Positions 8,932-47,196 of a DNA stretch of 64,000 nucleotides are shown one piece after another (position 1 is the first letter of the stretch; the number at the start of each line of letters is the position of its first letter). Below the pieces are notes generated by a model. That model was not told the origin of the DNA and did no database searches. It saw nothing but the letters and a program-made list of their open reading frames with translations. The position numbers were made by a program, and so were the translations under genes. The DNA is from a virus (lineage: Duplodnaviria > Caudoviricetes): positions 1 through 64,000 of IMG/VR virus record IMGVR_UViG_3300002026_000006; one strand, written 5' to 3'.

Positions 8932-9018
8932 GTCGGTGTGGCGGAATTGGTAGACGCCACAGACTTAAAATCTGTTGCCCGTAAGGGCGTGTCGGTTCGA
9001 TTCCGACCACCGATACCA
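8932..9018 (+). tRNA. tRNA-Leu (anticodon UAA)
   Basis: GTCGGTG/CACCGAT acceptor, D-loop GG, loop CTTAAAA, long variable arm, GGTTCGATTCC, encoded CCA; TAAATA late promoter at 8919. Confidence 0.95.
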
Positions 9019-9036: not shown

Positions 9037-9111
9037 CCCACATTCTTCTAATGGAAAAGAAATCCGCCTTCTAAGCGGTCAATATTTGTTCGATTCAAAT
9101 ATGTGGGACCA
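9037..9111 (+). tRNA. tRNA-Arg (anticodon UCU), AT-rich and slightly atypical
   Basis: CCCACAT/ATGTGGG acceptor, TTCT/AGAA D-stem, loop CTTCTAA, ATTTG-TTCGATT-CAAAT T-arm, CCA end. Confidence 0.8.
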
Positions 9112-9471: not shown

Positions 9472-9672
9472 ATGAGTTTTAAACGTGATTCAGAAACAAA
9501 TCTTTTCGTGCCAACCGCGCACTTTAAGATGCCAAAGCAAGTAAAGCGAACGCTTGCTACAATTTTGGACAAGGATTTGCGCGATCAATGGCGAAATGTG
9601 TCTGCACAATCTGTTATGCAAAGTTTTGAGGAAATTACTAAAGCTCAGAAATCCAAAAATAAAGGTTCCTAA
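9472..9672 (+). CDS. hypothetical protein
   Basis: AGGAG RBS; FKMPKQVKRTLA motif. Confidence 0.7.
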   Translation: MSFKRDSETNLFVPTAHFKMPKQVKRTLATILDKDLRDQWRNVSAQSVMQSFEEITKAQKSKNKGS

Positions 9673-10447
9673 GTCTTAAACCATCGCTTACAATTTTATT
9701 TGGAGTTTTTAGGGAAATCTCTGAAAACTCTTTTTTAGATCGTACATTTTTTATAGTGATAGTTTTAAAAAATAATAATGCATCATCGACAGTAGTAAAT
9801 CCAAAATAAGTCAATGATCTGGATATAAACTTTTCTCTTTTGTTCCTTTCGACCTTTTCTATGATTTTTTCCGGGTGTCTATACTTAGAATTTTTCTTCG
9901 CAATAGATATTAATAATCTTTGTTCGTCATTTAATTTTCTTCCTTTATCTTTACGAACTTTCTTTTTCATCCCGCGAAAATGGTGATTTCCTGGTGATCT
10001 ATTCTGTTTAATTTTTAATATAGTTCCTTCTGAAAGTTTAACACCTGTTCTTCTATTAATTGTTGTAATCCTAGCCTTTTCTCGTGCCTCTTCTGTAAAT
10101 TGACCTGATATCCCATTTTCAGAAACCATGTTAGCCCAATCACGAGATTCTATAATGTTTTGTTGTTCTGAAAATTTTAAAGCAAATTCGTTTAAAATAA
10201 AAATGTCTGTGAATAAACAATACCAAAGAGTTTCTATATTTTCTTTACCATATTTTTTATAATTTCTTGTCCAATATTTTCCAGAGCCAAGATACTTCTC
10301 AACATCTTGTTGTACGGTTTTTCCAAAATAAAGAAGTCCTGTAACTTTACATCTTTTGATATAAAGAAAAGTTGGTTGGAAATTCTGGATTTGGTTTTCA
10401 GTTGGTGCTGCTAAAGCGTACTGAGCATAAATATTGAAGCTGGTCAT
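9638..10447 (-). CDS. GIY-YIG (Seg-like) homing endonuclease with NUMOD3-like motifs (cassette copy 1)
   Basis: FLYIKRCKVTGLLYFGKT...YLGSGKYW; AAGGAG RBS. Confidence 0.85.
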   Translation of the reverse strand: MTSFNIYAQYALAAPTENQIQNFQPTFLYIKRCKVTGLLYFGKTVQQDVEKYLGSGKYWTRNYKKYGKENIETLWYCLFTDIFILNEFALKFSEQQNIIESRDWANMVSENGISGQFTEEAREKARITTINRRTGVKLSEGTILKIKQNRSPGNHHFRGMKKKVRKDKGRKLNDEQRLLISIAKKNSKYRHPEKIIEKVERNKREKFISRSLTYFGFTTVDDALLFFKTITIKNVRSKKEFSEISLKTPNKIVSDGLRLRNLYFWISEL

Positions 10448-10518
10448 AAAGACTCCTTAAACTGGGTTGACTAGAGTAGGTGGATGCTGATTACATCGTG
10501 ACCTACACATATATTTAG
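10427..10518. ncRNA. nuclease-associated structured cassette, copy 1 (convergent late promoters around a two-hairpin RNA)
   Basis: ATAAATA 10427-33; CTGGTCA/TGACTAG; GTAGGT-G-GATG-loop-CATC-GTG-ACCTAC; minus-strand TAAATA 10512-17. Confidence 0.65.
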
Positions 10519-10538
10519 TGTTTTTAAATTTTAGCGTG

Positions 10539-10563
10539 AATGGGCTTAATTGCCCATTTTTTG
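10539..10563 (+). terminator. intrinsic terminator
   Basis: AATGGGC-TTAATT-GCCCATT followed by T tract. Confidence 0.65.
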
Positions 10564-10631
10564 TTTGTGATAAATATAATATGTCAGAAGTTTTTTGACG
10601 GTCACAATTTTAAATAGATGGAGAAAAGTTA

Positions 10632-12506
10632 ATGAGCGATTACAGTTTTAGTCAATACCTAAAAGAAAATAAAAACAAAGACCATTTTGAATTTATTTTG
10701 GAAACATATGAGCCATATGAATCATTCCAATTAAACGAAAATATGACTAACTTTGATGTTGGTGCTAAACAACAAAGTATCGGTAATATGAAAAAGGCTA
10801 TTGAAAAAGGAGTAGATGAACATTATTCAAAATCTCCAGAAGAAAGAAAAAAGGCAGTAGAAGAAGCAAAAGCGCACTTCAAAAATACTGATCTGCGCAC
10901 AGATGAAGAGAGAAAGTATGGCGAAGATTATAAGAAAAAGCGTGAAGAGCATAATTCTAAGCCAGAAAATAAAAAGAACCAATTGTCCAAGAGTATATTT
11001 GAAGAACCATTAATACATAACGGCGAACCAATTACTAGCACAAAGAAACACAAAATGTCCGATGCAGAAAATGCAGGAGATTATGTAATTCCTCGCGGCC
11101 CACATAAGGGAATGGGCGCTAATGTTGGTGGTATGAGATTAACCCCTGGGACAGCAAATCTAGGTCATGGCAAAGTTCTAAAAACTTGTCCTGCAGCCAC
11201 TAGAGGTTGTGAAGGTTCTTCTGGTGAACGTCAAGAATCTGGGGTATTCAAAGATGGTTTGTGTTTGGCTGCAAATAAGGGCATGGACACTACCACAAAC
11301 TCTAAGCGTGATAAACTAGCCAGAACGAGAGCATATGCGTTGCCAGAGCACCAAAAGCACTCTACTACACTAATTGCAAACGGTATCGAGAAGATGCACA
11401 AAAAAGCAGAAAAAGAAAATGCGGTAGCACACATTCGTCAACGCGATGCCTCAGATATCGATGTTATTGGTGGCGTAGTAAAAAAACATTTTGGCAGTCA
11501 TCCAACTTACATGAATGGAGCTAAAGCTAAAGCCCCTGTCGTTCAGTATGGTTATTCTAAGCACGTTAGACACAATAATGAAGGAACTGCTATAGATGAC
11601 AACCGTGAATCTGCTTCTGATAATACCGATGACGATAAAAAACATGCACCAAAAGAATACATTTATCGCTCAGATCAAGGACCAGAATTTGGGCATGACG
11701 GTAAGCCAATTCATGGCAACCGCGAGAAAAAGAAAGCTACTATTGATCATTTGAACAGTGGCGAAAATGCCCATGCTTATCTAGTAGCTGCTAGAATTCG
11801 TGATGCTGTCACTAAAGGGTCAGATTCTGATACTCTGAAGGACGTTCATACGGTCAGATATCACAAATATGATGATAAAGGTGCATATGAGGGCCATGAA
11901 GATTATGATGCAGATCGTAACAGCGAGCATGGCGATTTACATATGTATGCACCGACAGCTAAACGCAATACAACTACTGCAGATGGTCGCAAAAAAGGTC
12001 GTGTTACTGTTACTGATATTTCAGGTGGAAGTAATGCGGATATTCATGGCAACGAAATGGTTCATCCATTACATGATGTTCAAAATGTACATGACCCAAA
12101 ACACCCACATCAACATGTAACAGACGATCCTGATCATCCAAGCAAGAAAATTCTTCATGTCGATCCACCTTGGATTCCTAGAAAAAAGGTAATTCCTATC
12201 CATCATGTGTCAGAGGCAATTTCTGCTCCAGCTAAATTTAATGCGCCTAAACGACCAAACCCAGTTGACCCAAAATCTGTATATGATCGTGTGGTGGCTA
12301 AACAAGCTAAACGCGAAGCAGCAAAGAAAGTCACTGAAGAATATTCGGAAAAGCATCCAAAAATTGATTTACACAATCGGCATTCAGGTGCTTATATTGC
12401 ATCAACAAATTGGTCGCCAACTGTTAAACATGCGGTCAACGCATATGAAACCAAAAATCCAGATATGAAGGGTCATGTTCGTGGGTATATCTCCGATAAA
12501 AAGTGA
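10632..12506 (+). CDS. large His/Lys-rich protein with GP88-like central domain; candidate capsid-internal protein
   Basis: TCPAATRGC...GLCLAANKG, HIRQRDASDI, VVQYGYSK; N-terminus MSDYSFSQYLKE; late promoter ATAAATA near 10569. Confidence 0.6.
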   Translation: MSDYSFSQYLKENKNKDHFEFILETYEPYESFQLNENMTNFDVGAKQQSIGNMKKAIEKGVDEHYSKSPEERKKAVEEAKAHFKNTDLRTDEERKYGEDYKKKREEHNSKPENKKNQLSKSIFEEPLIHNGEPITSTKKHKMSDAENAGDYVIPRGPHKGMGANVGGMRLTPGTANLGHGKVLKTCPAATRGCEGSSGERQESGVFKDGLCLAANKGMDTTTNSKRDKLARTRAYALPEHQKHSTTLIANGIEKMHKKAEKENAVAHIRQRDASDIDVIGGVVKKHFGSHPTYMNGAKAKAPVVQYGYSKHVRHNNEGTAIDDNRESASDNTDDDKKHAPKEYIYRSDQGPEFGHDGKPIHGNREKKKATIDHLNSGENAHAYLVAARIRDAVTKGSDSDTLKDVHTVRYHKYDDKGAYEGHEDYDADRNSEHGDLHMYAPTAKRNTTTADGRKKGRVTVTDISGGSNADIHGNEMVHPLHDVQNVHDPKHPHQHVTDDPDHPSKKILHVDPPWIPRKKVIPIHHVSEAISAPAKFNAPKRPNPVDPKSVYDRVVAKQAKREAAKKVTEEYSEKHPKIDLHNRHSGAYIASTNWSPTVKHAVNAYETKNPDMKGHVRGYISDKK

Positions 12507-13817: not shown

Positions 13818-14015
13818 ATGATGGCAGCACTCTATCCCTCGAAAAAAGACCTGAAAACAAATGTCGGCAAATCTCTGGTCTATCAAGAAACCTCGATGTT
13901 TGGTGAAGAATTCAAACGTGATGGTAAATTTTGCGTGGTCGGTCCTTCACCAACTAATCGCAAATGGTTTGCTGAAGTTACCATGAAAGACGGAAAGATT
14001 TCAAAAGTTAGTTAA
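13818..14015 (+). CDS. conserved small phage protein
   Basis: YPSKKDLK..VGK.L.YQETSMFGEEF...VVGPSP..RKWFA. Confidence 0.7.
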   Translation: MMAALYPSKKDLKTNVGKSLVYQETSMFGEEFKRDGKFCVVGPSPTNRKWFAEVTMKDGKISKVS

Positions 14016-14046
14016 GTTGTTGTTCTCCTGAGTCAAATCAGGGTTG

Positions 14047-14081
14047 CCCCTAAATAGTTAAAAGCTTTTAGGGGATTTTTC
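14047..14081 (+). promoter_or_regulatory. late promoter inside an RBS-sequestering hairpin
   Basis: CCCCTAAA-tagttaaaagct-TTTAGGGG; TAAATA at 14051; AGGGG RBS before ATG 14082. Confidence 0.7.
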
Positions 14082-14654
14082 ATGGGTGCATTTTTAGAAT
14101 ATCTTGAGGAACATGTTTTGTCGATTGGATTAAATCCAGATCACGAACAACACAGAGAAAAATATCGTGACCAGATTCATGATATGATCAAAAACTCTTA
14201 TGCATATGCGGGTGGATATGGTGGCATTGAATCTGGGTCAAAAGAAGAATCCGACTCAATTCACAAAGATATTACAAACAGCATTATCAAAGCAACAAAG
14301 CGTGGTGATAAAATTACTTCTGTAAATTTGTATAGAAAACAGCACGGTCTTAAATCTATTGCTTCTGCCACTCTTGGTAAAAATCATGGGGTAACACCAG
14401 AAGAAAAGACTGCAGCAGTTAAAGATTATATGAAAAATAAAGACGAAGATAATAAACAAAAACGTGCGTGGGGTGAGGTTTCTGGGATTCCATTATCATT
14501 GGCTAATAAATTAAATGTACCAAAAGTATCAAATGACAGAGCCGAAGAATTAACTGGCAAGAAAATTATTTCAAAAAATAAAGATGGAGTTTCCTATACA
14601 AGAATAATAGGAAACTCGGAGCATGAAAAAGTTATCGTTGGTCATCCTAAATAA
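14082..14654 (+). CDS. candidate capsid-internal (late) protein
   Basis: N-terminus MGAFLEYLEE resembles the T4 capsid-targeting sequence; late promoter. Confidence 0.6.
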   Translation: MGAFLEYLEEHVLSIGLNPDHEQHREKYRDQIHDMIKNSYAYAGGYGGIESGSKEESDSIHKDITNSIIKATKRGDKITSVNLYRKQHGLKSIASATLGKNHGVTPEEKTAAVKDYMKNKDEDNKQKRAWGEVSGIPLSLANKLNVPKVSNDRAEELTGKKIISKNKDGVSYTRIIGNSEHEKVIVGHPK

Positions 14655-15408
14655 AGACATCTTCCATTTTCCAGTCTGTTAAATTTTCAGCAGACTTTCT
14701 TTTATTTTTCTTTCTGTAATCTTTTAATACCCAAAAAGAAATTTTATATTTTTCTGATAGAATTTTAAGAGTATCATCTAGATTTCCATTGGAAAACCAT
14801 TCTAGACCATCTGGAGTTGTTATTTTTACAAGTTTTGCTTTACTATTATTTGACCCTTTGTGACTGCCGTTTCGTTTTCTAGACTCTAGCATTTTTTTCA
14901 TAATTTCAGACGATTGTGATGGATACATGACACCATATTTTTCCATACACGTTTCCGTAGCTTTTTTAGTATTTGTGTATCCAGAATCTCCATATCTGTC
15001 GAGTCTAGTTTGGCATATTTTTTCTTGATTGTTATAAGAATCACTACCATACCTATCAGTCTTAGTAATTTTTATTTTTTCTACGTGAGTTTTTGTAGGT
15101 AAAGTCTTTCCATTCATACCACCAACAACTATATTGTAAGTATCTTCTTTTATAATCCAATCATGATCGACAAATATACCTTCTATTTCATATAGACATT
15201 CCCGTGTAAACGCACAAAATAAAATTTCTTTTTTAAAGTTTTCTCTTCCGTATTTAATAAAAGCTTGCTTTATAGCATTACCTGATCCTATGTAAGAATC
15301 TTGTAAGTCATTGGTAGAGTGGGCACCACGATATTTCTTGCCGTTGATAAGATTTGTGGTTTCGTAGATGATATGAAATTTATATTCATAAATAGTTTTG
15401 CTGGTCAT
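14647..15408 (-). CDS. GIY-YIG homing endonuclease with KYG repeats (cassette copy 2)
   Basis: IIYETTNLINGKKYRGAH...YIGSG...KYGRENFKKEIL. Confidence 0.85.
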   Translation of the reverse strand: MTSKTIYEYKFHIIYETTNLINGKKYRGAHSTNDLQDSYIGSGNAIKQAFIKYGRENFKKEILFCAFTRECLYEIEGIFVDHDWIIKEDTYNIVVGGMNGKTLPTKTHVEKIKITKTDRYGSDSYNNQEKICQTRLDRYGDSGYTNTKKATETCMEKYGVMYPSQSSEIMKKMLESRKRNGSHKGSNNSKAKLVKITTPDGLEWFSNGNLDDTLKILSEKYKISFWVLKDYRKKNKRKSAENLTDWKMEDVFI

Positions 15409-15480
15409 ATAGACTCCTTAACTTGGGTTGACTAGAGATAGCAGGAATTCTCAGGTTCCGTGGCTATCAGTTATATTTAG
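15388..15480. ncRNA. nuclease-associated structured cassette, copy 2
   Basis: ATAAATA 15388-94; CTGGTCA/TGACTAG; GATAGC-A-GGAA-loop-TTCC-GTG-GCTATC; minus-strand TAAATA 15474-79. Confidence 0.65.
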
Positions 15481-15540
15481 TAAAATTTAATTTGTGGTAA
15501 AAAACACACAAAAGACACATATAAACAAAAAAGTGATACA

Positions 15541-16101
15541 ATGGAGTTCTCAGAAACTCTTAACAAATTAATCATGCGACATTCAAACACTTTTGTCTAC
15601 TTTCATGGATATGGGTCGTCCTCAAAGACAGATAAAGTAGACCGAATCAAAAAAATCTATCCGAACGATAAAGTATATGCTTTTGATGCAGACATTGATC
15701 CTGATATTGCGATCAAAGAAGTCGGGGATAAGATTTTTGAAAAATTGGTGGACGACCACTCAGAAGGTAAATTGATTTTCATTGGGACAAGCCTTGGTGC
15801 ATGGTTAGCCAATGAACTATCAAACGAGTATGAGTGTCTTGCTATTTTGATCAATCCATCTTACATGCCAAGAATAACTCTAGGAAATTATGGTGTTCCT
15901 GCAAACATTGTAAAAAAATATTCTCCCATGTTACTCACAGACCTGAATCGAAAAAGGTTTTATATTGATCCTCTTGATGACGTCATCAAGCACTCTCATT
16001 TACTTTCAATTTTGCCAGAAGAAAATGTTATTCTGACGCCAGGGGTTGGTCATAGGTTCACCGGTCCAGAATTTGAGTCGATGTTGAAAAATATTTTCTG
16101 A
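15541..16101 (+). CDS. alpha/beta hydrolase, YqiA/UPF0227-like esterase
   Basis: FHGYGSS, GTSLGAW nucleophile elbow, LINP, GHRF. Confidence 0.85.
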   Translation: MEFSETLNKLIMRHSNTFVYFHGYGSSSKTDKVDRIKKIYPNDKVYAFDADIDPDIAIKEVGDKIFEKLVDDHSEGKLIFIGTSLGAWLANELSNEYECLAILINPSYMPRITLGNYGVPANIVKKYSPMLLTDLNRKRFYIDPLDDVIKHSHLLSILPEENVILTPGVGHRFTGPEFESMLKNIF

Positions 16102-16189
16102 TTTTTGTTGTTTTTTTGCTACTTTAGCAGTTTTCCTCTGTTTTTGCTGTTACAATACATACATCGACAAAACAACTTGAAAGCACAAA

Positions 16190-16597
16190 ATGGCATACGT
16201 CTCAAAAGAAACCAAAGCAACCATAGTCTCACTGGTAAAGCCGGTTCTCAAGAAATATGGTATCAAAGCCACATTTTCTGTTCGCAATCGCATGTCTTTG
16301 GTCATGTCCATCAAATCTGGTAAGATCGATTTCATCGACAGCTTTGTTCGCACAGCAGGTAAACGGTATCCAGAAAACTTTGATGCGACTCGCGTCGTTA
16401 AAGATATAGATGTGAATCCTTACTGGTATCATGAGCATTTTGATGGTATCGCTCTTAAATTTCTCAAAGAAGTGTTTCCGTTGCTGAACACTGGAAATTT
16501 CAATCATTCAGATATTCAATCGGATTATTTTAGCGTAGGTTTTTATTTAGACGTAAAAATAGGTAAGTGGGACACTCCTTACGTTCTGGAAGCTTAA
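16190..16597 (+). CDS. conserved phage hypothetical protein
   Basis: MAYVSKE...KKYGIKATFSVR...DVNPYWY...DIQSDYFSVG; promoter TGtTACAAT 16148-56. Confidence 0.75.
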   Translation: MAYVSKETKATIVSLVKPVLKKYGIKATFSVRNRMSLVMSIKSGKIDFIDSFVRTAGKRYPENFDATRVVKDIDVNPYWYHEHFDGIALKFLKEVFPLLNTGNFNHSDIQSDYFSVGFYLDVKIGKWDTPYVLEA

Positions 16598-16599
16598 TA

Positions 16600-16881
16600 A
16601 TGGACTACGAACTTAAAAATTCGTTGCAATGGGGTATCATTAAGCCTATGTTGTATTCTGATTTCGCGGTTTACTATGATGAATCTGCGAAATTAAAAAT
16701 CGATCAACAAGTCGCTACCATGATCGAAAGATTTGACACCTACATTTCAGAAATTTCCAAAGCTGAAGTTATGGAACGCACCAGCCCAAAATATTTTCGT
16801 TTGACTGAACTGTTGCATAATTTCAACACCCAACTCCAAGATTGCAAAGAATTATTCTTAATTCGGATGATGACTCGCTGA
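16600..16881 (+). CDS. hypothetical protein
   Basis: ORF from the MDYELK ATG. Confidence 0.55.
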   Translation: MDYELKNSLQWGIIKPMLYSDFAVYYDESAKLKIDQQVATMIERFDTYISEISKAEVMERTSPKYFRLTELLHNFNTQLQDCKELFLIRMMTR

Positions 16882-16927
16882 ACCTGTTACAATAGAGACT
16901 TCTTACAAACACTCTCAGGATTAAATC

Positions 16928-17206
16928 ATGACCACATTTGTTCTTATCAATGCTTCTGGTAAACTTCTGCGCGAAAATTGTGCCACAAAATGGTATGATA
17001 CAGAGCGTGGTGCCAAGTCTGCTGCCACCAGAATTTTCAAGAAAACTGGTGTAGAGTGGAAAGCGATCACTAATGACGAATTTGAAATGAACCATAATCC
17101 TTTGGTTGAAGTCATTAGCCTCATGTCTGGAAAGCCAGTTATGATTCGTTCTAGCGAAGTTGGTTCTTGTGTGGACCCGTCACGCGGGTCATATTGGTGC
17201 CAATAG
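16928..17206 (+). CDS. hypothetical protein
   Basis: follows promoter at 16885-16902; AGGA RBS. Confidence 0.7.
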   Translation: MTTFVLINASGKLLRENCATKWYDTERGAKSAATRIFKKTGVEWKAITNDEFEMNHNPLVEVISLMSGKPVMIRSSEVGSCVDPSRGSYWCQ

Positions 17207-17254
17207 GATTCGTGGTATAATTCTTTTCTTATCAATTTTATTTAAATTTTCATC

Positions 17255-18358
17255 ATGGCTACAATTTCTCAAACTCGCACCGTTACCTCTCAACAACTGA
17301 AAAAAGCACTTCGCGTTGCTATTAAAATCAAGCGTCCAGCTATGATTCTCGGAGCGCCTGGAATTGGTAAGTCCGATGTTGTTCAGCAACTTTGTGACGA
17401 AATGGGTGGTAAGCTGTATGACGTTCGCCTCGGACTTTGTGACATTTCCGACATAAAAGGACTCCCATATCTCGATAAAGACTCAAAAACAATGATGTTT
17501 GCTCCGCCTGTTGATCTTCCAACAGCAGAAGATGCTGCAAAATATCCAGTTGTTTTCTTGTTTCTTGATGAACTGAATTCTGCTCCACCAAGCGTCCAAG
17601 GTGCCGCATATTCGCTTATTCTTAATCGTCGGGTTGGTCAATATATGCTGCCTGACAATGTTGTAATTGTTGCTGCTGGTAATCGTGACAATGATCGTGG
17701 TGTTACTTACAAAACACCAAAACCACTTTCAAACCGTTTGCTCAATTTTGAAATGCGTGTCGATTTTGACTCGTGGTACGAATATGCACTTGAGAAGAAG
17801 TTGAATTCTAGTGTTGTCGGTTTCTTGGATTTCTCAAAATCCAGCCTCAATGATTTTGACCCAATGAGTCCAGAGCGATCATTTGCTACACCACGTTCAT
17901 GGGAGTTTGTTTCTCAAATTCTCAGCGATGATTCAATTGATACTGAAACTGTCATGGAATTGGTAGCATCAAGCGTCGGTTCTGGTATGGCATTGAAATT
18001 CATGTCACACCGCAAGATGGCATCCAAGTTGCCAGCACCAGAAGATATTTTGTCTGGTAAAATCACTGAGTTGACTACCAAAGAAATTTCAGTCACATAC
18101 ACTCTTATTGCAGAACTGAATTATGTTCTGAAAGATAGGTGGGCAAAGCTTGGTGGTACTAAAAATGAAGACAAGTGGCATGAAGCAGCCGATTTTGCTC
18201 TTGGCTTCGCTATGAAAAACTTCTCGACTGAGATTCAAGTTCTGTTTTTGCGCAACGCAATGCAAAAATTTAATCTGCCGTTTACTCCTAAGAAATTGAC
18301 AAATTTCAAAGAGTATTATGAAAAGGTTGGTAAGCTGATTATCAAATCTGTTTCTTAA
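17255..18358 (+). CDS. MoxR-like AAA+ ATPase
   Basis: Walker A GAPGIGKS, Walker B LFLDELN, AAGNR, RSFATPRSW. Confidence 0.9.
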   Translation: MATISQTRTVTSQQLKKALRVAIKIKRPAMILGAPGIGKSDVVQQLCDEMGGKLYDVRLGLCDISDIKGLPYLDKDSKTMMFAPPVDLPTAEDAAKYPVVFLFLDELNSAPPSVQGAAYSLILNRRVGQYMLPDNVVIVAAGNRDNDRGVTYKTPKPLSNRLLNFEMRVDFDSWYEYALEKKLNSSVVGFLDFSKSSLNDFDPMSPERSFATPRSWEFVSQILSDDSIDTETVMELVASSVGSGMALKFMSHRKMASKLPAPEDILSGKITELTTKEISVTYTLIAELNYVLKDRWAKLGGTKNEDKWHEAADFALGFAMKNFSTEIQVLFLRNAMQKFNLPFTPKKLTNFKEYYEKVGKLIIKSVS

Positions 18359-18366
18359 AAGAGACA

Positions 18367-18558
18367 ATGCCACCAAAACCTAGAACAACATCGAGTCTTC
18401 TACACGAAAGCATGGTAGAATCTCAGATGTGGTCAAATATTAGAAGAAAAGCAGTTTCTGATCAGGCGTTGAAAGATATGCTTGATCAGGTTAAGATGTA
18501 TTACCTTCTTAAATATGATCGTGGTGACTACGCTAAATTAAGAGAGCAAAATGACTGA
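18367..18558 (+). CDS. small hypothetical protein
   Basis: MWSNIRRKA...ALKDMLDQVKMYYLL. Confidence 0.6.
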   Translation: MPPKPRTTSSLLHESMVESQMWSNIRRKAVSDQALKDMLDQVKMYYLLKYDRGDYAKLREQND

Positions 18559-18565
18559 ATCTACT

Positions 18566-19687
18566 TCATTCCATTATCATAAACTCAAACAAATATCCTG
18601 CGAATATCGATCCTTCTTTTTTTGCGATATTTTTTGAAAGTACGTCTGGACGTTTACCTTTTCCGTCATATGTCCATGTAGACTTAACCTCTATTATTTT
18701 ATTTAAAGATTTTATTAACATATCTGGATGATACACATGCCATTTATCATCACCAAAACCATCTGAAGATGACCAAAAATATTTAATCGATGGTCTGTTT
18801 ATTAAAATTATGTCATCCTCGATAACCCCATTGCTCAGTAAAAAGTCTAACGCTTTAGGCTCATATCCTTGTACATTATAAGTTTTACCAGATGGAAAAG
18901 TATATTTTTTGTTGGTTCTCCTATGAGACATTATTTTATCATGTATATCAGGAACTTGACTAGAGTAGCCAATGCCATATTTATCAATCATTCCTTGTGT
19001 AGTAACTCTTATTCCATTATCACCAATTATATTTGAAGCATTATAAACACCGTATTTTAAAAATATAGAATCGGTAGAACGACATCTGACTTCTTCTGAT
19101 TGCATAGGATGTTCTACTTGATGATTATGCAGGCAAGTTTCGATTTTCTTATCTTTAACCCAATCTAATTTACTAGGATTATCCGCTCCATATTTTTCAC
19201 TCATAGTATTTTTACATTTTGTAATACCATTTTCTCCTACAATAGTAACACAATACGGAGTCCCATATATTTTTTCTGCAGTTACTTCATACTTTCTTCT
19301 TCCATCCGAATCTCTAATGTCACATGTATTATATACTCCATAATTTTTAAATAGACTTTCTTTACATTTTAATATATTAGGGGCGTAATTTTTAGAACAT
19401 TTTATGCTACAACATTCTTTAAACCTATTTAATTTATGATAAAATTCTGTGCATTCTTCACCACAGACTAAACAATATTTTTTGGCATAATCACAATTAT
19501 CTATTCTATATACAATTTCTTGAGTTAAAATCGGTGGCTTCACAATACCATTGCGAATCAAAATTTTATTTATATACTTTACCGATGCTTTATGAATTTT
19601 ATATAAGTCAGAAATTTCTTTTTTATCATCAGACGATAAAAAAGATAAGTTGATTAAAAATTCTTGATAAATAGTTTCGCTGGTCAT
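18566..19687 (-). CDS. putative homing endonuclease: Cys4 zinc finger, KYGVxN repeats, C-terminal PD-(D/E)XK domain (cassette copy 3)
   Basis: CLVC..CCSIKC; KYGADN/KYGVYN repeats; QGYEP...YHPDMLIKSLNKIIEVKSTWT. Confidence 0.75.
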   Translation of the reverse strand: MTSETIYQEFLINLSFLSSDDKKEISDLYKIHKASVKYINKILIRNGIVKPPILTQEIVYRIDNCDYAKKYCLVCGEECTEFYHKLNRFKECCSIKCSKNYAPNILKCKESLFKNYGVYNTCDIRDSDGRRKYEVTAEKIYGTPYCVTIVGENGITKCKNTMSEKYGADNPSKLDWVKDKKIETCLHNHQVEHPMQSEEVRCRSTDSIFLKYGVYNASNIIGDNGIRVTTQGMIDKYGIGYSSQVPDIHDKIMSHRRTNKKYTFPSGKTYNVQGYEPKALDFLLSNGVIEDDIILINRPSIKYFWSSSDGFGDDKWHVYHPDMLIKSLNKIIEVKSTWTYDGKGKRPDVLSKNIAKKEGSIFAGYLFEFMIME

Positions 19688-19791
19688 ATAGACTCCTTAA
19701 CCTGGGTTGACTAGAGTCACTGGGTTTTATCAGAACCGCGAGTGACATTTTTGTTGACGCACCAGAATTTTTATGGTACAATACTATTTAG
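19667..19791. ncRNA. nuclease-associated structured cassette, copy 3 (with outward sigma70 promoter)
   Basis: ATAAATA 19667-73; GTCACT-G-GGTT-loop-AACC-GCG-AGTGAC; TTGACG 19754-59 + 17 + TACAAT 19777-82; minus-strand TAAATA 19785-90. Confidence 0.7.
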
Positions 19792-19821
19792 GGTTTTAGA
19801 ATTTTCACTTAAATCAAACAT

Positions 19822-20985
19822 ATGAATCAAAACAACCAAGCGTTAGAAAGCCTAGTAGTCTCTAGGATTTCACTTTTAATGAAATTTCCTTTTTTTGGAA
19901 ATTTAGCAACTAGACTTATTTTGGTTCCATCGACAGAAATAAAAACAGCAGCAACAGATGGTAGATCAATTCTTTTCAATGCTAATTTCATCAATTCACT
20001 AAAAAAAGATGAAATTAGTTTTGTAATTTTACATGAAGTTTTGCATTGTGTTTTAGAACATGTCGGGGTAGATTCTAGATTGATGGGTAGAGAACCTAAG
20101 CTTTGGAACATATCAACGGATATGGTAATAAATTTAATGTTAGTAGAACAAGGATTGAGTCTACCGACCACTGTGCCATGCCTGTATGACAAAAAATACA
20201 CCAATTGGGCAACCGAAGCAATTTATGATGACCTGATGCAAAAGTCAGATGGTGAACAAGAAAAATTAGCCGGTCAAGTTTTGGACGAACACCTTGAAGA
20301 CTCGGATGAAGGCGGTCCAGAAGGCACACAGATGACACCAGAACAGCGGCAGGCACTAAAAGACGATATTCGTGAGGCGATGATATCTGCTGCTCAGTCG
20401 TGTGATCCTAGCTCGATTCCAGCAGGTTTAAAACGTCTTATTTCTGAATTCACAGAACCAAAAATAGATTGGCGCGAACTGATTCAACAGCAAATCGAAT
20501 CTCAAGTAAAATTCGACTTTACTTATTCAAAGCCAAGTCGCAGGGGCGGCGGTATGGACGTTATTCTACCATCGACCAAAAAAGAGCCAGCCATTGAATG
20601 CACAATTGCCATTGATACGTCTGGCTCAATCACTGACAAAATGGTCAAAGAATTTCTCAGCGAAGTGAATGGTATTATGGGAATGTACACATCGTTCAAA
20701 GTTGCCGTAATGTGTTGGGATACTCAAGTCTATTCATATCAAGAATTTGATGAAAATAGCTCTGATGATTTGCTGTCTTATGAAATTGAAGGTGGTGGCG
20801 GTACAGATATTTCATGCGTCTTCAAATATTTTGAAGAAAATGAAATTACGCCAAAACAGCTTATTGTTTTCACTGACATGGAGCTTTTTGGTGGTTGGGG
20901 TGATTCTACTTTATGTGATACAATTTGGTTAGCAAAAGACTCAAATAAAATCGCACCTTATGGGATTACTATCAAGTTTGAATAA
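19822..20985 (+). CDS. DUF2201-like metallopeptidase plus vWA domain protein
   Basis: TAATDG, HEVLH (HExxH), WNISTD; DTSGSI MIDAS motif, GGGGTD. Confidence 0.85.
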   Translation: MNQNNQALESLVVSRISLLMKFPFFGNLATRLILVPSTEIKTAATDGRSILFNANFINSLKKDEISFVILHEVLHCVLEHVGVDSRLMGREPKLWNISTDMVINLMLVEQGLSLPTTVPCLYDKKYTNWATEAIYDDLMQKSDGEQEKLAGQVLDEHLEDSDEGGPEGTQMTPEQRQALKDDIREAMISAAQSCDPSSIPAGLKRLISEFTEPKIDWRELIQQQIESQVKFDFTYSKPSRRGGGMDVILPSTKKEPAIECTIAIDTSGSITDKMVKEFLSEVNGIMGMYTSFKVAVMCWDTQVYSYQEFDENSSDDLLSYEIEGGGGTDISCVFKYFEENEITPKQLIVFTDMELFGGWGDSTLCDTIWLAKDSNKIAPYGITIKFE

Positions 20986-21185
20986 TGATAGTTCCTCTTA
21001 CTATTAAGTGTGTGGAAAATGTGTGTGATAAATACCAAAATCATCCAGACGGAGTTTTACCTGCACTGATAAAAGAATTTGGGTGTCATATTGAAATCCG
21101 AAAAATCGAACCAAGAGAATCAGTGGAGTTGGATTTTTGGGAAGATGATAAAGCAATTTTATTTACACTAAAATACATGGGATAA
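20985..21185 (+). CDS. hypothetical protein
   Basis: coupled ORF. Confidence 0.5.
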   Translation: MIVPLTIKCVENVCDKYQNHPDGVLPALIKEFGCHIEIRKIEPRESVELDFWEDDKAILFTLKYMG

Positions 21186-21302
21186 TTAATTTATATGAAA
21201 GGCGTGTTATGATTTTAATGGACGTAGTTATTATTGGTTCTGCAGTAGTTTATGCACTGTGGATGTGGTCTGTATTCGTTAAAGCCAAGAAAGAATCTGA
21301 AA

Positions 21303-21956
21303 ATGAAAGTTAAATTAGTCGGGTACACTCAGCCAAGTGAGGAATTTAAAAATGATTTTTCTACGGTTAAAGACTTGGTTGCATTTTGTGCTAGGGTTTC
21401 AAATCCAAGTAATCAGTTTAATACTACAACATCAGATAAACTTATTGGGTATCTGATTAAACATAAGCACTGGAGTCCATTAGAAATGGCTTCAGCGACT
21501 GTAGAAATTGAAACAACTAGAGATATTGCTAGGCAGTTGCTGCGTCATCGAAGTTTTTCATTCCAAGAATTTAGTCAAAGATATGCAGACCCTACTAAAG
21601 ATTTGGATTTTGAATATCGTGATGCTAGATTACAAGATTTAAAGAATCGGCAAAATTCTATTGTTACCGATGATATTGTTTTGGACAAAGAATGGAAAGA
21701 AAAACAAAAAGAAATTTTGGATTTAGTAAAATCTAATTATCAATGGGCCATTGATAATGGAATTGCAAAAGAACAGGCTAGAGCTATTTTGCCAGAAGGT
21801 ATGACAAAATCTAGGCTTTATGTGTCTGGTACAATCAGGTCATATATTCACTATATAGAAGTAAGAACCGATGAATCTACTCAGTTAGAGCATCGTGAAT
21901 TAGCAGTTGCTGTCGCCGCTGCTATTAATAAAATTTTTTCGATAGGTACTAATTAG
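21303..21956 (+). CDS. thyX: flavin-dependent thymidylate synthase
   Basis: [32 protein letters not shown] motifs. Confidence 0.95.
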
Positions 21957-22713
21957 TAGGCAAATCGTCAATCATTGCATACCAACCAATATATTTTCTA
22001 AATCTGTTTAATATGAAAGAATTTTTTTCTGTATAAATTCTTTCTCCATTATTTTTATAGGAAGCTTTTAATGCATTTGCTGGCAAATCATATAATGTAC
22101 AGGTTTTTGTAAAATTGCCTATACATGTATGCACCACATTATTACAATTATCGTAAATTAATATACCTTTTGCCTTACAAGAATTTGCTCCCGAGTTTTT
22201 CCCAATAAGAGAAATTGATATTTTTTTCTTCGTTTCTTCTGATCTAGGAACATTTTTATGTAAATTTAAAAGTTTTATTTTTAAATCTTCTGGCATTGTG
22301 CGCCCAAGACTATTCTTATTGCCAAGTTTACTTTTAGCCATTTTTTGTCGTGTTTGTAAAGAAACGATAACTGTTTTACCTGATGTGCCTTCACCCCCGT
22401 CTGTAAAATTGTGTAATATTCCGCTTTTAATATCAAACCTACCCCACCAATTTATCAACCTCCTTTCTAATGCAATTGAACCTAGTTCTGTCAGATTCTT
22501 TTCTATGATAATAATATTAAATTTATTTTTTGGTATTGGTAAATTACCGTGGTTATTCCAAGCACGGTAACCAGTACCCTTACCTATATAATATGGAGTT
22601 CCTGCTTTAGCAGTTTTTGAGTCTTTTGAACGAATGTAAGCATAAACGTAAAACCTTAATGGATTTGTTTTGTCTTTACTTTGGTTAACTAAATATTGTT
22701 TAATGCTGTGCAT
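21949..22713 (-). CDS. GIY-YIG homing endonuclease with NUMOD3 motifs (cassette copy 4)
   Basis: FYVYAY...PYYIGKG..RAW; [10 protein letters not shown]; NFTDGGEG; SEETKKKIS. Confidence 0.85.
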
Positions 22714-22815
22714 AATAGCCTTTCGTTGGGTTGCATAGAGTCATTGGGTTTGTCGAGAACCGCGAGTGACATTTTTGTTGACGTACCAGAATTTTCGTGG
22801 TACAATTATATTTAT
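22689..22815. ncRNA. nuclease-associated structured cassette, copy 4 (with outward sigma70 promoter)
   Basis: TAAATA 22690-95; CTGTGCA/TGCATAG; GTCATT-G-GGTT-loop-AACC-GCG-AGTGAC; TTGACG 22778 + 17 + TACAAT 22801. Confidence 0.7.
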
Positions 22816-34545: not shown

Positions 34546-35715
34546 TTAAAGTTTAAAGTTTCTCTTTGGTATATTAATATTGCCAAGTTTAACCCATTCT
34601 TTCCTAGTTTTCATTTTCTCAGATACGACTAGATCATCATGTGGATACATGAGCTTTTCAACTCCAGACTCAGAATAAACTCTAATTCTTCCAGCGTTTA
34701 TTCTTCTATATAAAGATTTATTATTATTATATTCTTCCATAGATATATTAATAGTTTCATTTGAATTATTATATACAGTTATACCTATACCGCAATTATT
34801 ATTTATAAGATTTTTTAGTTTTATTATAGGATCGGATATATCTAGATAATATTTATTTCCTTCAGAATCTTTAAATGTTGATTTATTTGTACATGCTGAG
34901 AATAATTCCCCTGATAATATTCTTGGATCGGATATATCTACATGATATTTATTTCCGTCCTTATCTACCATATTACATTTATTTTTTGTTACTCCCACCC
35001 AATCATTATTATTTTTGTCATTGAATTCTGATAATGGAATCATTTTTCTAATTCCATTTTTATTAATAGAAGATACCATATTACGAGACATATGGACAAG
35101 TTCTCCAGTTTGCAGACGCTCATCTGATACGTCTACTTGGAATATTTTTTCGGTATTAGCAAATTTTACTGGTATTTTATTTTTAAATATATGGACAAGT
35201 TCTCCAGTTTTTATTCTTAAATCATCTTTATCGACTAAGATCGGCTTACCATCTAAAAGATATACGGCTTTCCCTTTTGTGACACCAACCAATTCTCCAG
35301 AGATATATCTAGGATCATCAATTTCAACTTGAAAAGTATTCCCTTCACTGTCAATAACAACCACCTTATTTTTAGACCTATGTTGGATTTTATCGCCAAC
35401 TAAATGATAAGACGAAGCTCTAGTGCCACCAACACATATGTTATAGATATTTCCTTTATTTTCCAATAACCAAGATTCCGAAACAAATTCCGCCTCGGCT
35501 AAATCTGCTAATTCTCTAGAAAACGCAAAAAATAAAATTTCTCTACTAAAGTTTTCTTTTCCATATTTCTTAATAGCTTTTTTTAATAATGTGCCGCTAC
35601 CTAAATATTCATCATCTAAATTATTGGTTAAATGTACACCTCTATATACTTTACCGTTTATATTGTTGGTTGTTTCATATATAAAATTAAATTCATAAAT
35701 ATTATTGCTGTGCAT
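34546..35715 (-). CDS. GIY-YIG homing endonuclease with ~8 tandem ~32-aa repeats (cassette copy 5)
   Basis: FIYETTNNINGKVYRGVH...YLGSG; repeats DxxGNxxxVDISDPRIxSGEL. Confidence 0.85.
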   Translation of the reverse strand: MHSNNIYEFNFIYETTNNINGKVYRGVHLTNNLDDEYLGSGTLLKKAIKKYGKENFSREILFFAFSRELADLAEAEFVSESWLLENKGNIYNICVGGTRASSYHLVGDKIQHRSKNKVVVIDSEGNTFQVEIDDPRYISGELVGVTKGKAVYLLDGKPILVDKDDLRIKTGELVHIFKNKIPVKFANTEKIFQVDVSDERLQTGELVHMSRNMVSSINKNGIRKMIPLSEFNDKNNNDWVGVTKNKCNMVDKDGNKYHVDISDPRILSGELFSACTNKSTFKDSEGNKYYLDISDPIIKLKNLINNNCGIGITVYNNSNETINISMEEYNNNKSLYRRINAGRIRVYSESGVEKLMYPHDDLVVSEKMKTRKEWVKLGNINIPKRNFKL

Positions 35716-35819
35716 AATGTCTCCTTAACTGTTGATAGCATAGAGTTCTTGGGTAGTTGCATACCGCGAAGAACATTTTTGTTGACGTACCAAAAATTTT
35801 GTGGTACAATACTATTTAG
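35695..35819. ncRNA. nuclease-associated structured cassette, copy 5 (with outward sigma70 promoter)
   Basis: ATAAATA 35695-701; CTGTGC/GCATAG; GTTCTT-G-GGTA-loop-TACC-GCG-AAGAAC; TTGACG 35782 + 17 + TACAAT 35805. Confidence 0.7.
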
Positions 35820-40005: not shown

Positions 40006-40287
40006 ATGTCAGAAAATGTTATTGTGGTAAATCCAAATGCTGATGACTCGGAATTACCAGAGGAAAAATTTGAATTTATGACTCCCAATAAGTTTCAGCT
40101 TCTGGTAGAAACTTATGTGGCGGAAAATGATGTTAGCTATATCGATGCTGTCTTATTTTATTGTGATTTATATGAAATCGAATTTGATATCATCGGAAAA
40201 CTTATATCTTCTAATTTGAAGGAAAAGCTAAATGTGTCGGCTATCGAGGCTGGATACTTCAAAGAAGAAAGTTCTCTACCAATTTAG
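40006..40287 (+). CDS. 33: late transcription coactivator gp33
   Basis: SYIDAVL.YC...IGKLIS.NLKEKL..AIEAGYF; position before 59-32. Confidence 0.85.
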   Translation: MSENVIVVNPNADDSELPEEKFEFMTPNKFQLLVETYVAENDVSYIDAVLFYCDLYEIEFDIIGKLISSNLKEKLNVSAIEAGYFKEESSLPI

Positions 40288-40293
40288 GGCACA

Positions 40294-40911
40294 ATGGCAA
40301 TAACTGGTTTTGAGTTTTACAAAATTCACAAAGCGATAAAACTCCACTTCAACACTCCCTATGATGTAATAAAGTATAAAGGTGCAACTAAGTCTACGAT
40401 TGATGAATTTAATTCTGCAAATGATAAATTCACTTTTGTTAGATATGCTAAAAAGTGTGGTAATATAGCTGATGCTATTGAAATGTGCGTTGCTTGCACA
40501 ATGGCATCTGGTAACGGATGGCTTCATGATGATCCAGAAACGAATTACAAGCATCTTGCCGAATGGCGTAAAATAAACTCTGCTTTGGCGTACAATGTCG
40601 GAAATGAGTTAGACTCTCTGGAAAATCTTATCGAGACAAAATTATCAGGATTTCAGTCTTTGATAGATAAAACCGCGAGTGGTAACAAAGCCCCATTGCT
40701 TCAACTATACCTTTCAAAAAAGGTTTTGGTTGCTACAGTTTTGGTTATCGATAAAATACATCCATTTATCGATAACTGGATAAAAGAATATGAGTCTGAC
40801 CCTATGCTGAAGAAAATACTTTTTCAGCTTGTCAAATACAAATCATTCTTGAAAACATTTGCATTGAAAGATGCAATGAAAAAATTTGGTGATTTTATCG
40901 TCACTAAATAA
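40294..40911 (+). CDS. 59: helicase loader gp59
   Basis: GFEFYKIHKAIKLHFN..YDVIKY; synteny 33-59-32. Confidence 0.85.
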   Translation: MAITGFEFYKIHKAIKLHFNTPYDVIKYKGATKSTIDEFNSANDKFTFVRYAKKCGNIADAIEMCVACTMASGNGWLHDDPETNYKHLAEWRKINSALAYNVGNELDSLENLIETKLSGFQSLIDKTASGNKAPLLQLYLSKKVLVATVLVIDKIHPFIDNWIKEYESDPMLKKILFQLVKYKSFLKTFALKDAMKKFGDFIVTK

Positions 40912-40967
40912 TAGTCCATTGGAGAAATCTTAGTGGAAATAAATCGTAACTTAAATTAAGGAAAATT

Positions 40968-41846
40968 ATGCGTAACCAAAGTATGTTTGAGAAGCTAAAG
41001 GCACAAGCCGAAAAAGCAAAAAATGGCACACCTTCATATAAAGAAGGTCAAGAAAATATTTGGAAATTGGAAGCTGATAAAGCAGGAAATGCTTCTGCGG
41101 TCATTCGATTTTTGCCCGGTAAGGATGAAGATTCTGTAGCTTGGGTAAAAGTATTTAATCATGGTTTTAAGGGTCCAACAGGCCAATGGTTTATCGAGCC
41201 ATGTCCGACAACGGTTGGTGATCAGTGCATTGTTTGTACTGCCAATAGCGTTTTATGGAATGAGGGGTCTGAAGCAAGCAAGAAAATTGTTTCTGCTCGT
41301 AAACGTAAGACTAAATATTATACCAATGTTTTGATTATCTCTGATCCAAAAAATCCAGATAATGAAGGTAAGGTAATGATTTTTAGCTTTGGTTCAAAAA
41401 TCTTTGATATGATCAATGCATGTTTTTCACCAGAAGATGCTGATGATACCCCATTCAATCCGTTTGATATCGAAGATGGTGCCAATTTTAAATTGAAAAT
41501 GTGTCAGGTTGCAGGATATGCTAACTTTGACAAATCAAAATTTGCTGACTGCTCTAAGGCTGAAATTGTTGATTATGCGTCTAAGCTTCATGATCTAGGT
41601 CAATTTATTGACCCAAAGGTTTTCAAGTCTGAAGAAGACATGCAGAAGCGGTTTGATCTGGTTCTAAAGGGTGATGCAAGGGCATCTGGTAAGGCTACAA
41701 TGCCTGAAGAGGATGATGACGAAGAGTACGCTGCACTAGCAGCTAAAGTGGCGGCAAAGCCAGTTAAATCGACTGCAGCAAGGTCTTTACCTGAAGAGGA
41801 TGACGATGATATGATGGCTGAGTTTCAGCGTCTAGCAGAAGATTAA
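40968..41846 (+). CDS. 32: single-stranded DNA-binding protein gp32
   Basis: DKAGNASAVIRFLP, HGFKGPTGQWFIEPCPTT, CIVC, GANFKLK, acidic tail. Confidence 0.95.
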   Translation: MRNQSMFEKLKAQAEKAKNGTPSYKEGQENIWKLEADKAGNASAVIRFLPGKDEDSVAWVKVFNHGFKGPTGQWFIEPCPTTVGDQCIVCTANSVLWNEGSEASKKIVSARKRKTKYYTNVLIISDPKNPDNEGKVMIFSFGSKIFDMINACFSPEDADDTPFNPFDIEDGANFKLKMCQVAGYANFDKSKFADCSKAEIVDYASKLHDLGQFIDPKVFKSEEDMQKRFDLVLKGDARASGKATMPEEDDDEEYAALAAKVAAKPVKSTAARSLPEEDDDDMMAEFQRLAED

Positions 41847-46377: not shown

Positions 46378-47196
46378 ATGTACATTCCTTATACATACTT
46401 AATTGGATGGTCTAAAGAAAATAAATTTTATTATGGGGTCCAATATGGCAGAAAAGCAAATCCAAAAAATTTATGGAAAACTTATTTTACGAGTTCTAAA
46501 GAAGTAAAAAGTTTTATAAACCATCATGGCAATCCAGATATTATAGAAATAAGAAGAACTTTTCAAACTGGAAAATCTGCTCTTTTGTGGGAACAAAAAG
46601 TCCTAAAAAGACTCGATGCAGGAAATAATGATAAATTCTTAAATCTTATAAGTGCTAATGACATGCATTTAATAAGGTTAGTAACAAATAGACAAAAGAA
46701 CATCACTAATGGTTATATAAATGGAAAAATTCCAGTATCTCAGGATATTCCTAATGGGTACTGGAGGGGAACTACAAAATTTCCTACGGGAAGTAAAGGG
46801 ATACCTAGATCAAAAGAATCTAATTTAAATAAATCTAAGGCAATGCAAGGTCTTGAGAAATCAAAATCTCACAGGCTAGCTTTATCCGTTGCTGCAAAGA
46901 AACAACACGAGGAAATGTCTGAAGAAGAAAAATTGAGAATAAAAAATCTATTTTCTAAGAAATATTCTGGAGAAAATAATCCTAGATTTGGGTGTGTAGT
47001 ATCAGACAAACAAAAAGAATTGAACATAAAAGCTCATCACGAAAGATTCGTAGTCAAAATTAAGCTTATGTTGAATATGAGTTTGGACGAATTTAAAGAA
47101 TATGTTAAGTTAGAATGTGAAAACGGCAGTAATTTTGCTAAAATATCAAAAGATATTGGGATATCTTGGTATCATATAAACAGATATTGTAATTAA
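46378..47196 (+). CDS. Seg-like GIY-YIG homing endonuclease with NUMOD3 motifs
   Basis: PYTYLIGW...YYGVQY...YFTSS...EIRRTF...WEQKVLKR. Confidence 0.8.
   Translation: MYIPYTYLIGWSKENKFYYGVQYGRKANPKNLWKTYFTSSKEVKSFINHHGNPDIIEIRRTFQTGKSALLWEQKVLKRLDAGNNDKFLNLISANDMHLIRLVTNRQKNITNGYINGKIPVSQDIPNGYWRGTTKFPTGSKGIPRSKESNLNKSKAMQGLEKSKSHRLALSVAAKKQHEEMSEEEKLRIKNLFSKKYSGENNPRFGCVVSDKQKELNIKAHHERFVVKIKLMLNMSLDEFKEYVKLECENGSNFAKISKDIGISWYHINRYCN

Follow-up and report, generated by a model that had tools for sequence, protein, structure and literature searches.

Introduction

The selfish elements of large lytic phages are chiefly homing endonucleases, and five of these in one uncultured phage raise the question of why nucleases matching different families should share both a leader and their first residues. 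The phage is known from a 90-kb viral contig recovered from a microbial-mat metagenome (IMG/VR record IMGVR_UViG_3300002026_000006), about half complete, of which the first 64 kb make up the stretch analysed here (hereafter, the window). Nearly all genes of the window lie on the + strand. The five minus-strand open reading frames (ORFs) of homing-endonuclease type, which match SegE-type GIY-YIG, NUMOD3, DUF7487 and PHROG homing-endonuclease families, are copy 1 (9638-10447, N-terminus MTSFNIY), copy 2 (14647-15408, MTSKTIY), copy 3 (18566-19687, MTSETIY; DUF7487), copy 4 (21949-22713, MHSIKQYL) and copy 5 (34546-35715, MHSNNIY; SegE-type GIY-YIG). A leader of about 90-125 bp and the first seven codons are conserved across all five.

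An initial annotation of the window, made from the letters alone, proposed that the first codons conceal a late promoter on the opposite strand, and that this promoter drives a small antisense RNA. Following up that proposal, we find that the leader and first codons form a cassette that recurs ahead of unrelated nucleases in other uncultured phages, with its inner promoter-like box conserved as nucleotides and its fold polarised toward the + strand. We read the cassette as a pair of convergent late promoters that would yield an antisense RNA of about 75-85 nt over the 5' untranslated region (UTR), ribosome-binding site (RBS) and AUG of the nuclease gene, in the manner of IS10 RNA-OUT, and we give this reading a probability of roughly 0.6.

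Results

On the plus strand, the word [AC]TAAATA lies within codons 5-7 of all five minus-strand nuclease genes. It reads ATAAATA at 10427, 15388, 19667 and 35695, each time followed by 5 nt and then GCTG, and CTAAATA at 22689 in copy 4, where 9 nt precede GCTG. Boxes on the minus strand, at 10518, 15480, 19791, 22815 and 35819, each stand 5 nt ahead of a G that opens a stem, and the two boxes of a cassette converge, 80-90 bp apart. The initial annotation had described both sets of boxes with these spacings, and we confirm them in all five copies. In copy 2, where the interval that it gave (15388-15480) reaches exactly from one TAAATA word to the other, the inner box (ATAAATA, 15388..15394, + strand, codons 5-7) is followed by a predicted start at the G at 15400 and by a structured element at 15400..15473 (+), recognised by a covariance-model match of 81.9 bits and by its fold and covariation. 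The element comprises a helix P1 (15401-15407 with 15429-15435, +), which encloses the complement of the Shine-Dalgarno sequence (SD) and AUG, and a helix P2 (15437-15442 with 15463-15468, plus an inner stem, +). The outer, or sense, late box (CTAAATA, 15474..15480, minus strand) lies 5 nt before the G at the P2 base, and the minus-strand nuclease ORF that the cassette heads encodes 253 amino acids with a GIY-YIG-like N-terminus and a partial DUF7487 match.

Relatives of the cassette were collected by pattern scans of IMG/VR and metagenome contigs and then with a covariance model (R1, from alignment A3) built from the P1-P2 interval only, the box being excluded. Chance matches of the pattern that lacked a cassette (L009, L011, L012, L014 and L022, plus most of several scans) were dropped with R1. 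Altogether 35 cassettes, 33 of them distinct, were found at 45-92 bits in uncultured phages, the copies of the window included. They head unrelated nucleases, among them GIY-YIG subtypes, HNH/Mob-like enzymes (phrog_655, 12434, 3339 and 559), DUF7487-type, PD-(D/E)XK-type and intron-like genes. The cassette is also retained on decayed ORFs of 25-110 codons, which suggests either that it outlasts the enzyme or that the decay is recent. No match was found among isolate phages (50,697 phage records) by megablast of positions 14000-21000 or by blastn of the cassette, so that no cultured carrier with published transcriptomics was found. Against Rfam 15, only two tRNAs of the window matched, and nothing came near significance on 15340-15540; a full-text literature search found no description of the cassette.

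Measured in register with the G of GCTG, the 35 cassettes carry less than 0.65 bits of information everywhere upstream of -12, 1.2-2.0 bits at -12 to -6 (ATAAATA), 0.2-0.9 bits at -5 to -1, and high information again from +1. The homology therefore begins exactly at the box, and the spacer is held in length but free in sequence. The box stands at 5 nt in 28 of the 35 and is displaced by 3-4 nt in three others (copy 4, L008:4354 and L150). In all 28 box-bearing copies codon 5 ends in T, whichever of N, D, C, P, L, T, F, S or R it specifies, and the Ile and Tyr that follow are without exception ATT and TAT; over the rest of these ORFs ATT accounts for 41% of Ile codons, TAT for 71% of Tyr codons, and T-ending codons for 14-35% of those for R, L, P and T. 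The distance from Ile-Tyr to the GIY motif that follows it ranges from 2 to 27 residues, and enzymes without that motif have Ile-Tyr at their head as well, which places it with the cassette and not with the enzyme. Conservation at synonymous sites in homologues was the check that the initial annotation had proposed, and one that could have gone against it; the outcome was clearly positive. Judged by codon choice, the inner box is under nucleotide-level selection, and on the same ground we reject an explanation of Ile-Tyr at the level of the protein. The related claim that conservation of Ile-Tyr reflects promoter constraint is borne out in part, by codon usage and by a homology that starts at the box edge, but four cassettes keep Ile-Tyr without the box.

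Those four cassettes lend something to a different explanation, in which U-AUU-UAU at codons 5-7 is kept for the sake of the mRNA, or Ile-Tyr for that of the protein, and the match to a promoter is coincidental. In the mRNA the word might pair with the transcribed sense box, as in the RBS-hairpin scheme of T4, or serve as an RNase E or repressor site or as a downstream translation element. The two boxes are indeed reverse-complementary and could close a long-range helix in read-through sense transcripts, and T-even nuclease genes do use late promoters plus RBS hairpins. We nevertheless regard this explanation as very improbable: codon 5 specifies nine amino acids with its third base fixed, and Ile-Tyr stands at 2 to 27 residues from the catalytic motif in unrelated nuclease families. 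Moreover, there is no covariation between the opening base of the sense box, which may be A, C or T, and the base that it would have to pair with, two cassettes (L021:1331 and L008:4354) have the + box and no nearby sense box, P1 is unsupported on the sense strand, and the word is the exact promoter word of the phage, at T4 spacing from a conserved purine.

The promoter identity of the word draws on several comparisons. The late promoter of T4 consists of an 8-bp box, placed roughly a helical turn before the point where transcription starts, and has no -35 element; an AT-rich segment lies downstream of the box, and late transcripts of either polarity occur (PMC2988020). The A(-13) variant described in the same work implies that the box spans -13 to -6, and the late-promoter consensus of T4-like cyanophages is NATAAATA (PMC2984593). 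In 28 of the 35 cassettes, ATAAATA occupies -12 to -6 of the conserved G, with a T-rich spacer, as the definition of a T4-type late promoter has it. Of the 21 A5T2 words, only one is rarer in the contig than ATAAATA, and none is found so often, in proportion, just upstream of a gene on its own strand (34% vs a median of about 12%); ATAAATA stands 16-46 nt ahead of structural genes for baseplate and tail. By its gene content the phage is T4-like, with homologues of T4-type baseplate hub, tube, wedge, hub-lysozyme, tail, RnlA, gp59-type loader, gp32-type single-stranded-DNA-binding protein (SSB), gp2 end protector and head-closure proteins, and a homologue of the gp33-type late-transcription co-activator (40006..40287, +; phrog_254, E = 7e-18) supplies the context expected of a phage that uses T4-type late promoters.

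The words are also unusually placed. Seventeen [AC]TAAATA words run antisense within the 124 ORFs of the 90-kb contig, and five of the 17 fall within the first 25 nt of the five nuclease genes, where about 0.005 per gene would be expected; because the five copies are homologous, the proper test is conservation in relatives, and its outcome, as noted above, is positive. In the first 50 kb of T4, TATAAATA is absent from the strand antisense to early genes, which fits the view that such words fire wherever they are present and are hence avoided. Over the same 50 kb, the antisense box is absent from the first 90 nt of mobA, segF, segA, mobB, mobC and I-TevII, and with six T4 nuclease genes lacking it in the 5' end, the plain T4 arrangement is ruled out as a description of the cassette.

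The interval between the boxes folds, and it does so preferentially on the + strand. For that strand RNAalifold predicts two helices at -20.55 kcal/mol, namely P1, with 6-7 bp around the complement of SD and AUG, and P2, with 6 bp, a bulged G, 1 bp, a bulged G and 4 bp; single-sequence folds add an inner helix, P1b. For the mRNA strand it predicts P2 only, at -14.33 kcal/mol, and not P1, and SD and AUG are open in sense-strand minimum-free-energy folds. Across the 33 distinct rows of the alignment, 96.6% of cells are paired and 14 of the 22 pairs show changes on both sides, a level of covariation that was reached by none of 500 shuffles and approached by no slid register. In each of 34 cassettes compared, the more stable fold is that of the + strand (mean -21.6 vs -14.7 kcal/mol). 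Covariation and strand polarity thus indicate a stable fold under selection, a feature of the RNA-OUT type.

The polarity resides in the wobble pairs. G-U cells total 78 on the + strand vs 1 on the mRNA strand (39 and 1 in P1, 28 and 0 in P1b, 11 and 0 in P2), although these counts exceed the number of independent events because the rows are related; in P2, where the wobbles involve eight different pairs and about ten separate lineages, we estimate that number at about 10. The initial annotation had called attention to pairs that wobble on the + strand but are A-C mismatches in the mRNA: a G-U in P1 of all five copies, a U-G in P2 of copy 4 and a G-U at the centre of copy 1. All of these are present, and the argument that it drew from them, that the antisense strand is the functional RNA, is made stronger by the relatives. 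The middle pair of P1 is G-U (+) and A-C (mRNA) in all five copies of the window and in 33 of 33 rows. A Watson-Crick pair at this position would cost no coding, the base concerned being the third of a Thr or His codon or a base of the UTR; since the wobble is invariant all the same, the wobble itself looks selected, as a pair that would let the helix form in the + RNA while breaking an AUG-burying helix in the mRNA.

Two other roles for these sequences were tried and rejected. An operator for a DNA-binding protein at the P1 inverted repeat is ruled out, since in a single genome one cassette type differs from another in both half-sites at once; that the P1 loop GGGTT pairs with the inner arm of P2 is ruled out by a lack of covariation. 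G-T wobbles are tolerated in DNA hairpins too, and the module, which can pass from one nuclease gene to another, stops sharply at the two TAAATA words; these might then be mere module ends of a hairpin in single-stranded + DNA, or of a cruciform, that serves homing, recombination or replication. This strikes us as the least probable of the explanations considered, with very little chance of being correct: no homing mechanism known to us makes use of a hairpin of this kind, both boundaries are formed by the promoter word of this very phage, at promoter-like spacing to the helix bases on either side, and the element is placed exactly over the translation start.

As to the ends of the transcripts, the sense box lies 3-5 nt ahead of the P2 base in 27 of the 35 cassettes, a position from which the mRNA would begin with P2, and the complement of this box, read on the + RNA, follows P2 at once as a U-rich tail. 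The mean energy of P2 is about -11 kcal/mol; of the 10 nt that come next, 5.6 are U, on the + strand alone, and copies 3-5 have AUUUUUGUU here. The predicted 3' end of the + RNA at P2 is in these respects terminator-like. An RNA reaching from the conserved G to this point would measure nearer 75-85 nt than the 65-70 nt first proposed.

From these elements we infer the following scheme, in which the cassette would be a portable control unit flanked by two convergent T4-type late promoters. The outer box ([ACT]TAAATA, minus strand) would start the nuclease mRNA at or near the P2 base, leaving RBS and AUG open, and the inner box (ATAAATA, codons 5-7) would start a + strand RNA at the G of GCTG. 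This RNA would fold into P1/P1b and P2 and probably end, at least in part, at P2 and the U-rich complement of the outer box. Its complementarity would be perfect over the entire 5' UTR, with the SD, the AUG and the first four codons, and by pairing with the nuclease mRNA the RNA would block ribosome binding, expose the duplex to RNase III, or both; promoter collision may add to the repression. Nuclease synthesis would in this way be held down late in infection, when genome copy number is high. Cross-regulation among copies 1-3 is possible, in that predicted duplex energies lie between -61 and -72 kcal/mol for copies 1-3 among themselves and between -29 and -39 kcal/mol for pairs with copy 4 or 5; they suggest that copies 1-3 form one cross-reacting group and that copies 4 and 5 are private.

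The setting of the genes bears on a further explanation, which we hold to be unlikely, if less so than those discussed above. At most loci the nuclease gene runs against the genes around it, and the + box might then be an embedded late promoter that serves the host phage by re-driving its + strand genes past the inverted nuclease insertion, with P1-P2 as a leader or as a terminator or insulator against + strand read-through, and with any antisense effect on the nuclease incidental. The seg and mob ORFs of T4 do embed promoters for neighbouring genes (PMC2988022), copies 3-5 carry an outward sigma70-like promoter, and between the box of copy 2 and the next + gene, at 15541, there is no clear terminator. 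In three loci (L015, L021 and L138), however, all neighbours are co-oriented with the nuclease, and box and fold are intact and equally conserved with no + strand gene to serve; there the box is the sole possible source of a + strand transcript. In copy 1, moreover, a strong terminator lies on the + strand and the next gene is preceded by an ATAAATA of its own, and an invariant, strand-discriminating wobble around the AUG would be left unexplained.

Besides the relatedness of the alignment rows, several observations weigh against control of the nuclease by an antisense RNA. Four of the 35 cassettes (L007, L176 and two in L172) have ATAGATT or ATATATA in place of the box and retain Ile-Tyr, so that either the box is dispensable in some lineages or Ile-Tyr is valuable in itself. 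A simple consensus terminator scan did not flag P2, and the U-run after P2 is interrupted; ATTTTTG is present after P2 in copies 3-5, as first described, but its terminator character goes no further than likeness. The GC skew of the + strand is positive, and strand-biased mutation could add slightly to the G-U excess. Of the T4 late-transcription proteins, neither gp55 nor gp45 was found among about 40 ORFs scanned in a contig that holds about half a genome. Finally, both promoters are of the late class, and an antisense RNA would therefore give damping only and not timing.

The other cassettes of the window follow the plan of copy 2, with a + box, an element and a minus-strand sense box. Copy 1 (10427..10518) has its + box at 10427-10433, its element at 10439-10511 and its sense box at 10512-10518. 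About 30 nt past this cassette lies a strong intrinsic-terminator-like hairpin (10538-10559, +; 8 bp and then a T-run), after which an ATAAATA at 10570 stands ahead of a 624-amino-acid gene at 10632. In copy 3 (19667..19791), the + box is at 19667-19673, the element at 19679-19751, followed by ATTTTTG, and the sense box at 19785-19791; in copy 4 (22689..22815), the + box is at 22689-22695, the element, after the 9-nt spacer, at 22705-22775, and the sense box at 22809-22815; in copy 5 (35695..35819), they are at 35695-35701, 35707-35779 and 35813-35819. Copies 3-5 have in addition near-consensus sigma70-type promoters with TG before the -10 (copy 3, TTGACG-N17-TACAAT at 19754-19782, +; copy 4, 22778-22806, +; copy 5, 35782-35810, +, assigned by identity with copies 3 and 4), directly after P2 and ATTTTTG, back-to-back with the sense late box and aimed at the next + strand gene. 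The spacer of this promoter is a palindrome (P3), and the P3 of copy 3 contains a pair that wobbles on the nuclease-mRNA strand alone, a polarity opposite to that of P1 and P2.

Among the relatives, intact box and fold precede truncated or broken nuclease ORFs of 25-94 codons at L005:5989-6150, L202:2282-2356, L008:4210-4362 and 1080-1361, and L172:949-1230. In one sub-lineage (L176:4129-4206, L172:4201-4279, L172:880-957 and L183:7712-7794) the P1 loop is 6-11 nt longer; three of its four members have ATATATA for ATAAATA in codons 5-7, and their sense boxes are still TATAAATA.

Elsewhere in the window, the gp33-type gene belongs to a T4-like block (40006-41846, +) that continues with the gp59-type helicase loader (40294-40911, +) and the gp32-type SSB (40968-41846, +). 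A further homing-endonuclease-type gene (46378-47196, +; phrog_314) is without a cassette and has an ATAAATA 100 nt upstream. The nuclease ORF of copy 4 overlaps the end of a thymidylate synthase gene (21252-21956) by 8 nt, and copy 3 sits between genes for a CobS-like AAA ATPase (17255-18358) and a vWA-domain protein (19822-20985), which are usually neighbours. Two tRNA genes (8932-9015 and 9037-9108, +; RF00005, 57.7 and 52.7 bits) are found some hundreds of bp ahead of the copy 1 region.

Discussion

The closest parallel is the RNA-OUT of IS10/Tn10, a short, stably folded antisense RNA that controls the nuclease-class gene of a mobile element; it is transcribed toward the sense promoter from within the 5' end of the ORF, and its target is the translation initiation region (PMC5006887). 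The cassette resembles it, at the level of sequence, in having an antisense promoter within the 5' end of the ORF and convergent with a sense promoter. It differs in that there is no homology of sequence or fold, its promoters are two T4-type late boxes, the overlap would cover the whole leader of about 80 nt rather than the 35 nt of IS10, the RNA would have two hairpins, and in lytic phages the cassette stands ahead of homing endonucleases from many families that are unrelated to one another.

Because RNA-OUT acts in trans, its repression grows with copy number (PMC5006887). A similar property might be extended to the cassette RNA, as a trans-acting, copy-number-sensing governor common to all homing-endonuclease cassettes of the same type. 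We put this forward tentatively and think it rather doubtful. Were it true, one small RNA family would cap the total nuclease output of the phage genome, the nucleases of co-infecting relatives with a matching cassette would be silenced in mixed infections, and the P1 sequence types (MTS vs MHS) would be specificity groups.

Other systems share parts of the arrangement. The restriction genes of EcoRI and Eco29kI have reverse promoters (PMC3874152), and with these, with symE/symR and with other 5'-overlapping type I pairs the cassette has in common a reverse promoter in or near the 5' end of a nuclease or toxin gene and a predicted antisense RNA over the SD; in the known systems, convergent promoters inhibit each other (PMC3874152). 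The cassette has no sequence or fold in common with symE/symR, EcoRI or Eco29kI. It also lies in a lytic phage, has late-class promoters, and its products are homing endonucleases of 250-390 amino acids and not small addiction toxins, so that the likeness to a type I antitoxin first proposed holds as an analogy but not as membership.

Homing-endonuclease control in T-even phages and Aeh1 combines a late promoter with an RBS-sequestering hairpin (I-TevI, I-TevII, I-TevIII, segB and mobE; PMC2988022). The cassette likewise belongs to a T4-like phage and has a late promoter-like box directly upstream of the nuclease gene and conserved RNA structure around the RBS, and the apparent purpose, to keep the nuclease low, is the same. 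The helix around the AUG, however, is on the opposite strand and is broken by conserved A-C mismatches on the mRNA, and there is a second, antisense box. With P2 and P1 both downstream of the sense box, a late transcript would have no way of escaping a hairpin, and neither defining feature of the T-even scheme applies, which rules that scheme out. An antisense RNA opposite a homing-endonuclease gene of a T4-like phage has been reported in one case, the CfrI of cyanophage S-PM2, detected by Millard et al. (2010) as summarised in PMC2984593. According to that summary, CfrI is about 225 nt long and links the nuclease gene to psbA, unlike a portable 5' cassette found across nuclease families.

To our knowledge, every control described for homing endonucleases (late promoters, RBS hairpins, autorepression) works through the sense strand. 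The function of the cassette, as far as its sequence allows us to judge, is probably nuclease restraint, and a portable cassette with sharp limits that carries an antisense RNA of its own would add another level to these controls; one and the same unit is found on GIY-YIG, HNH and PD-(D/E)XK-type nucleases in many uncultured phages of the T4-like kind. It would constitute a new family of phage small RNAs, absent from Rfam. Through its invariant G-U/A-C pair, one segment of DNA would fold in one transcript and stay open in the complement. Such a cassette would also explain why unrelated nucleases share their first seven residues, in that these codons would be kept as promoter and helix and not as protein.

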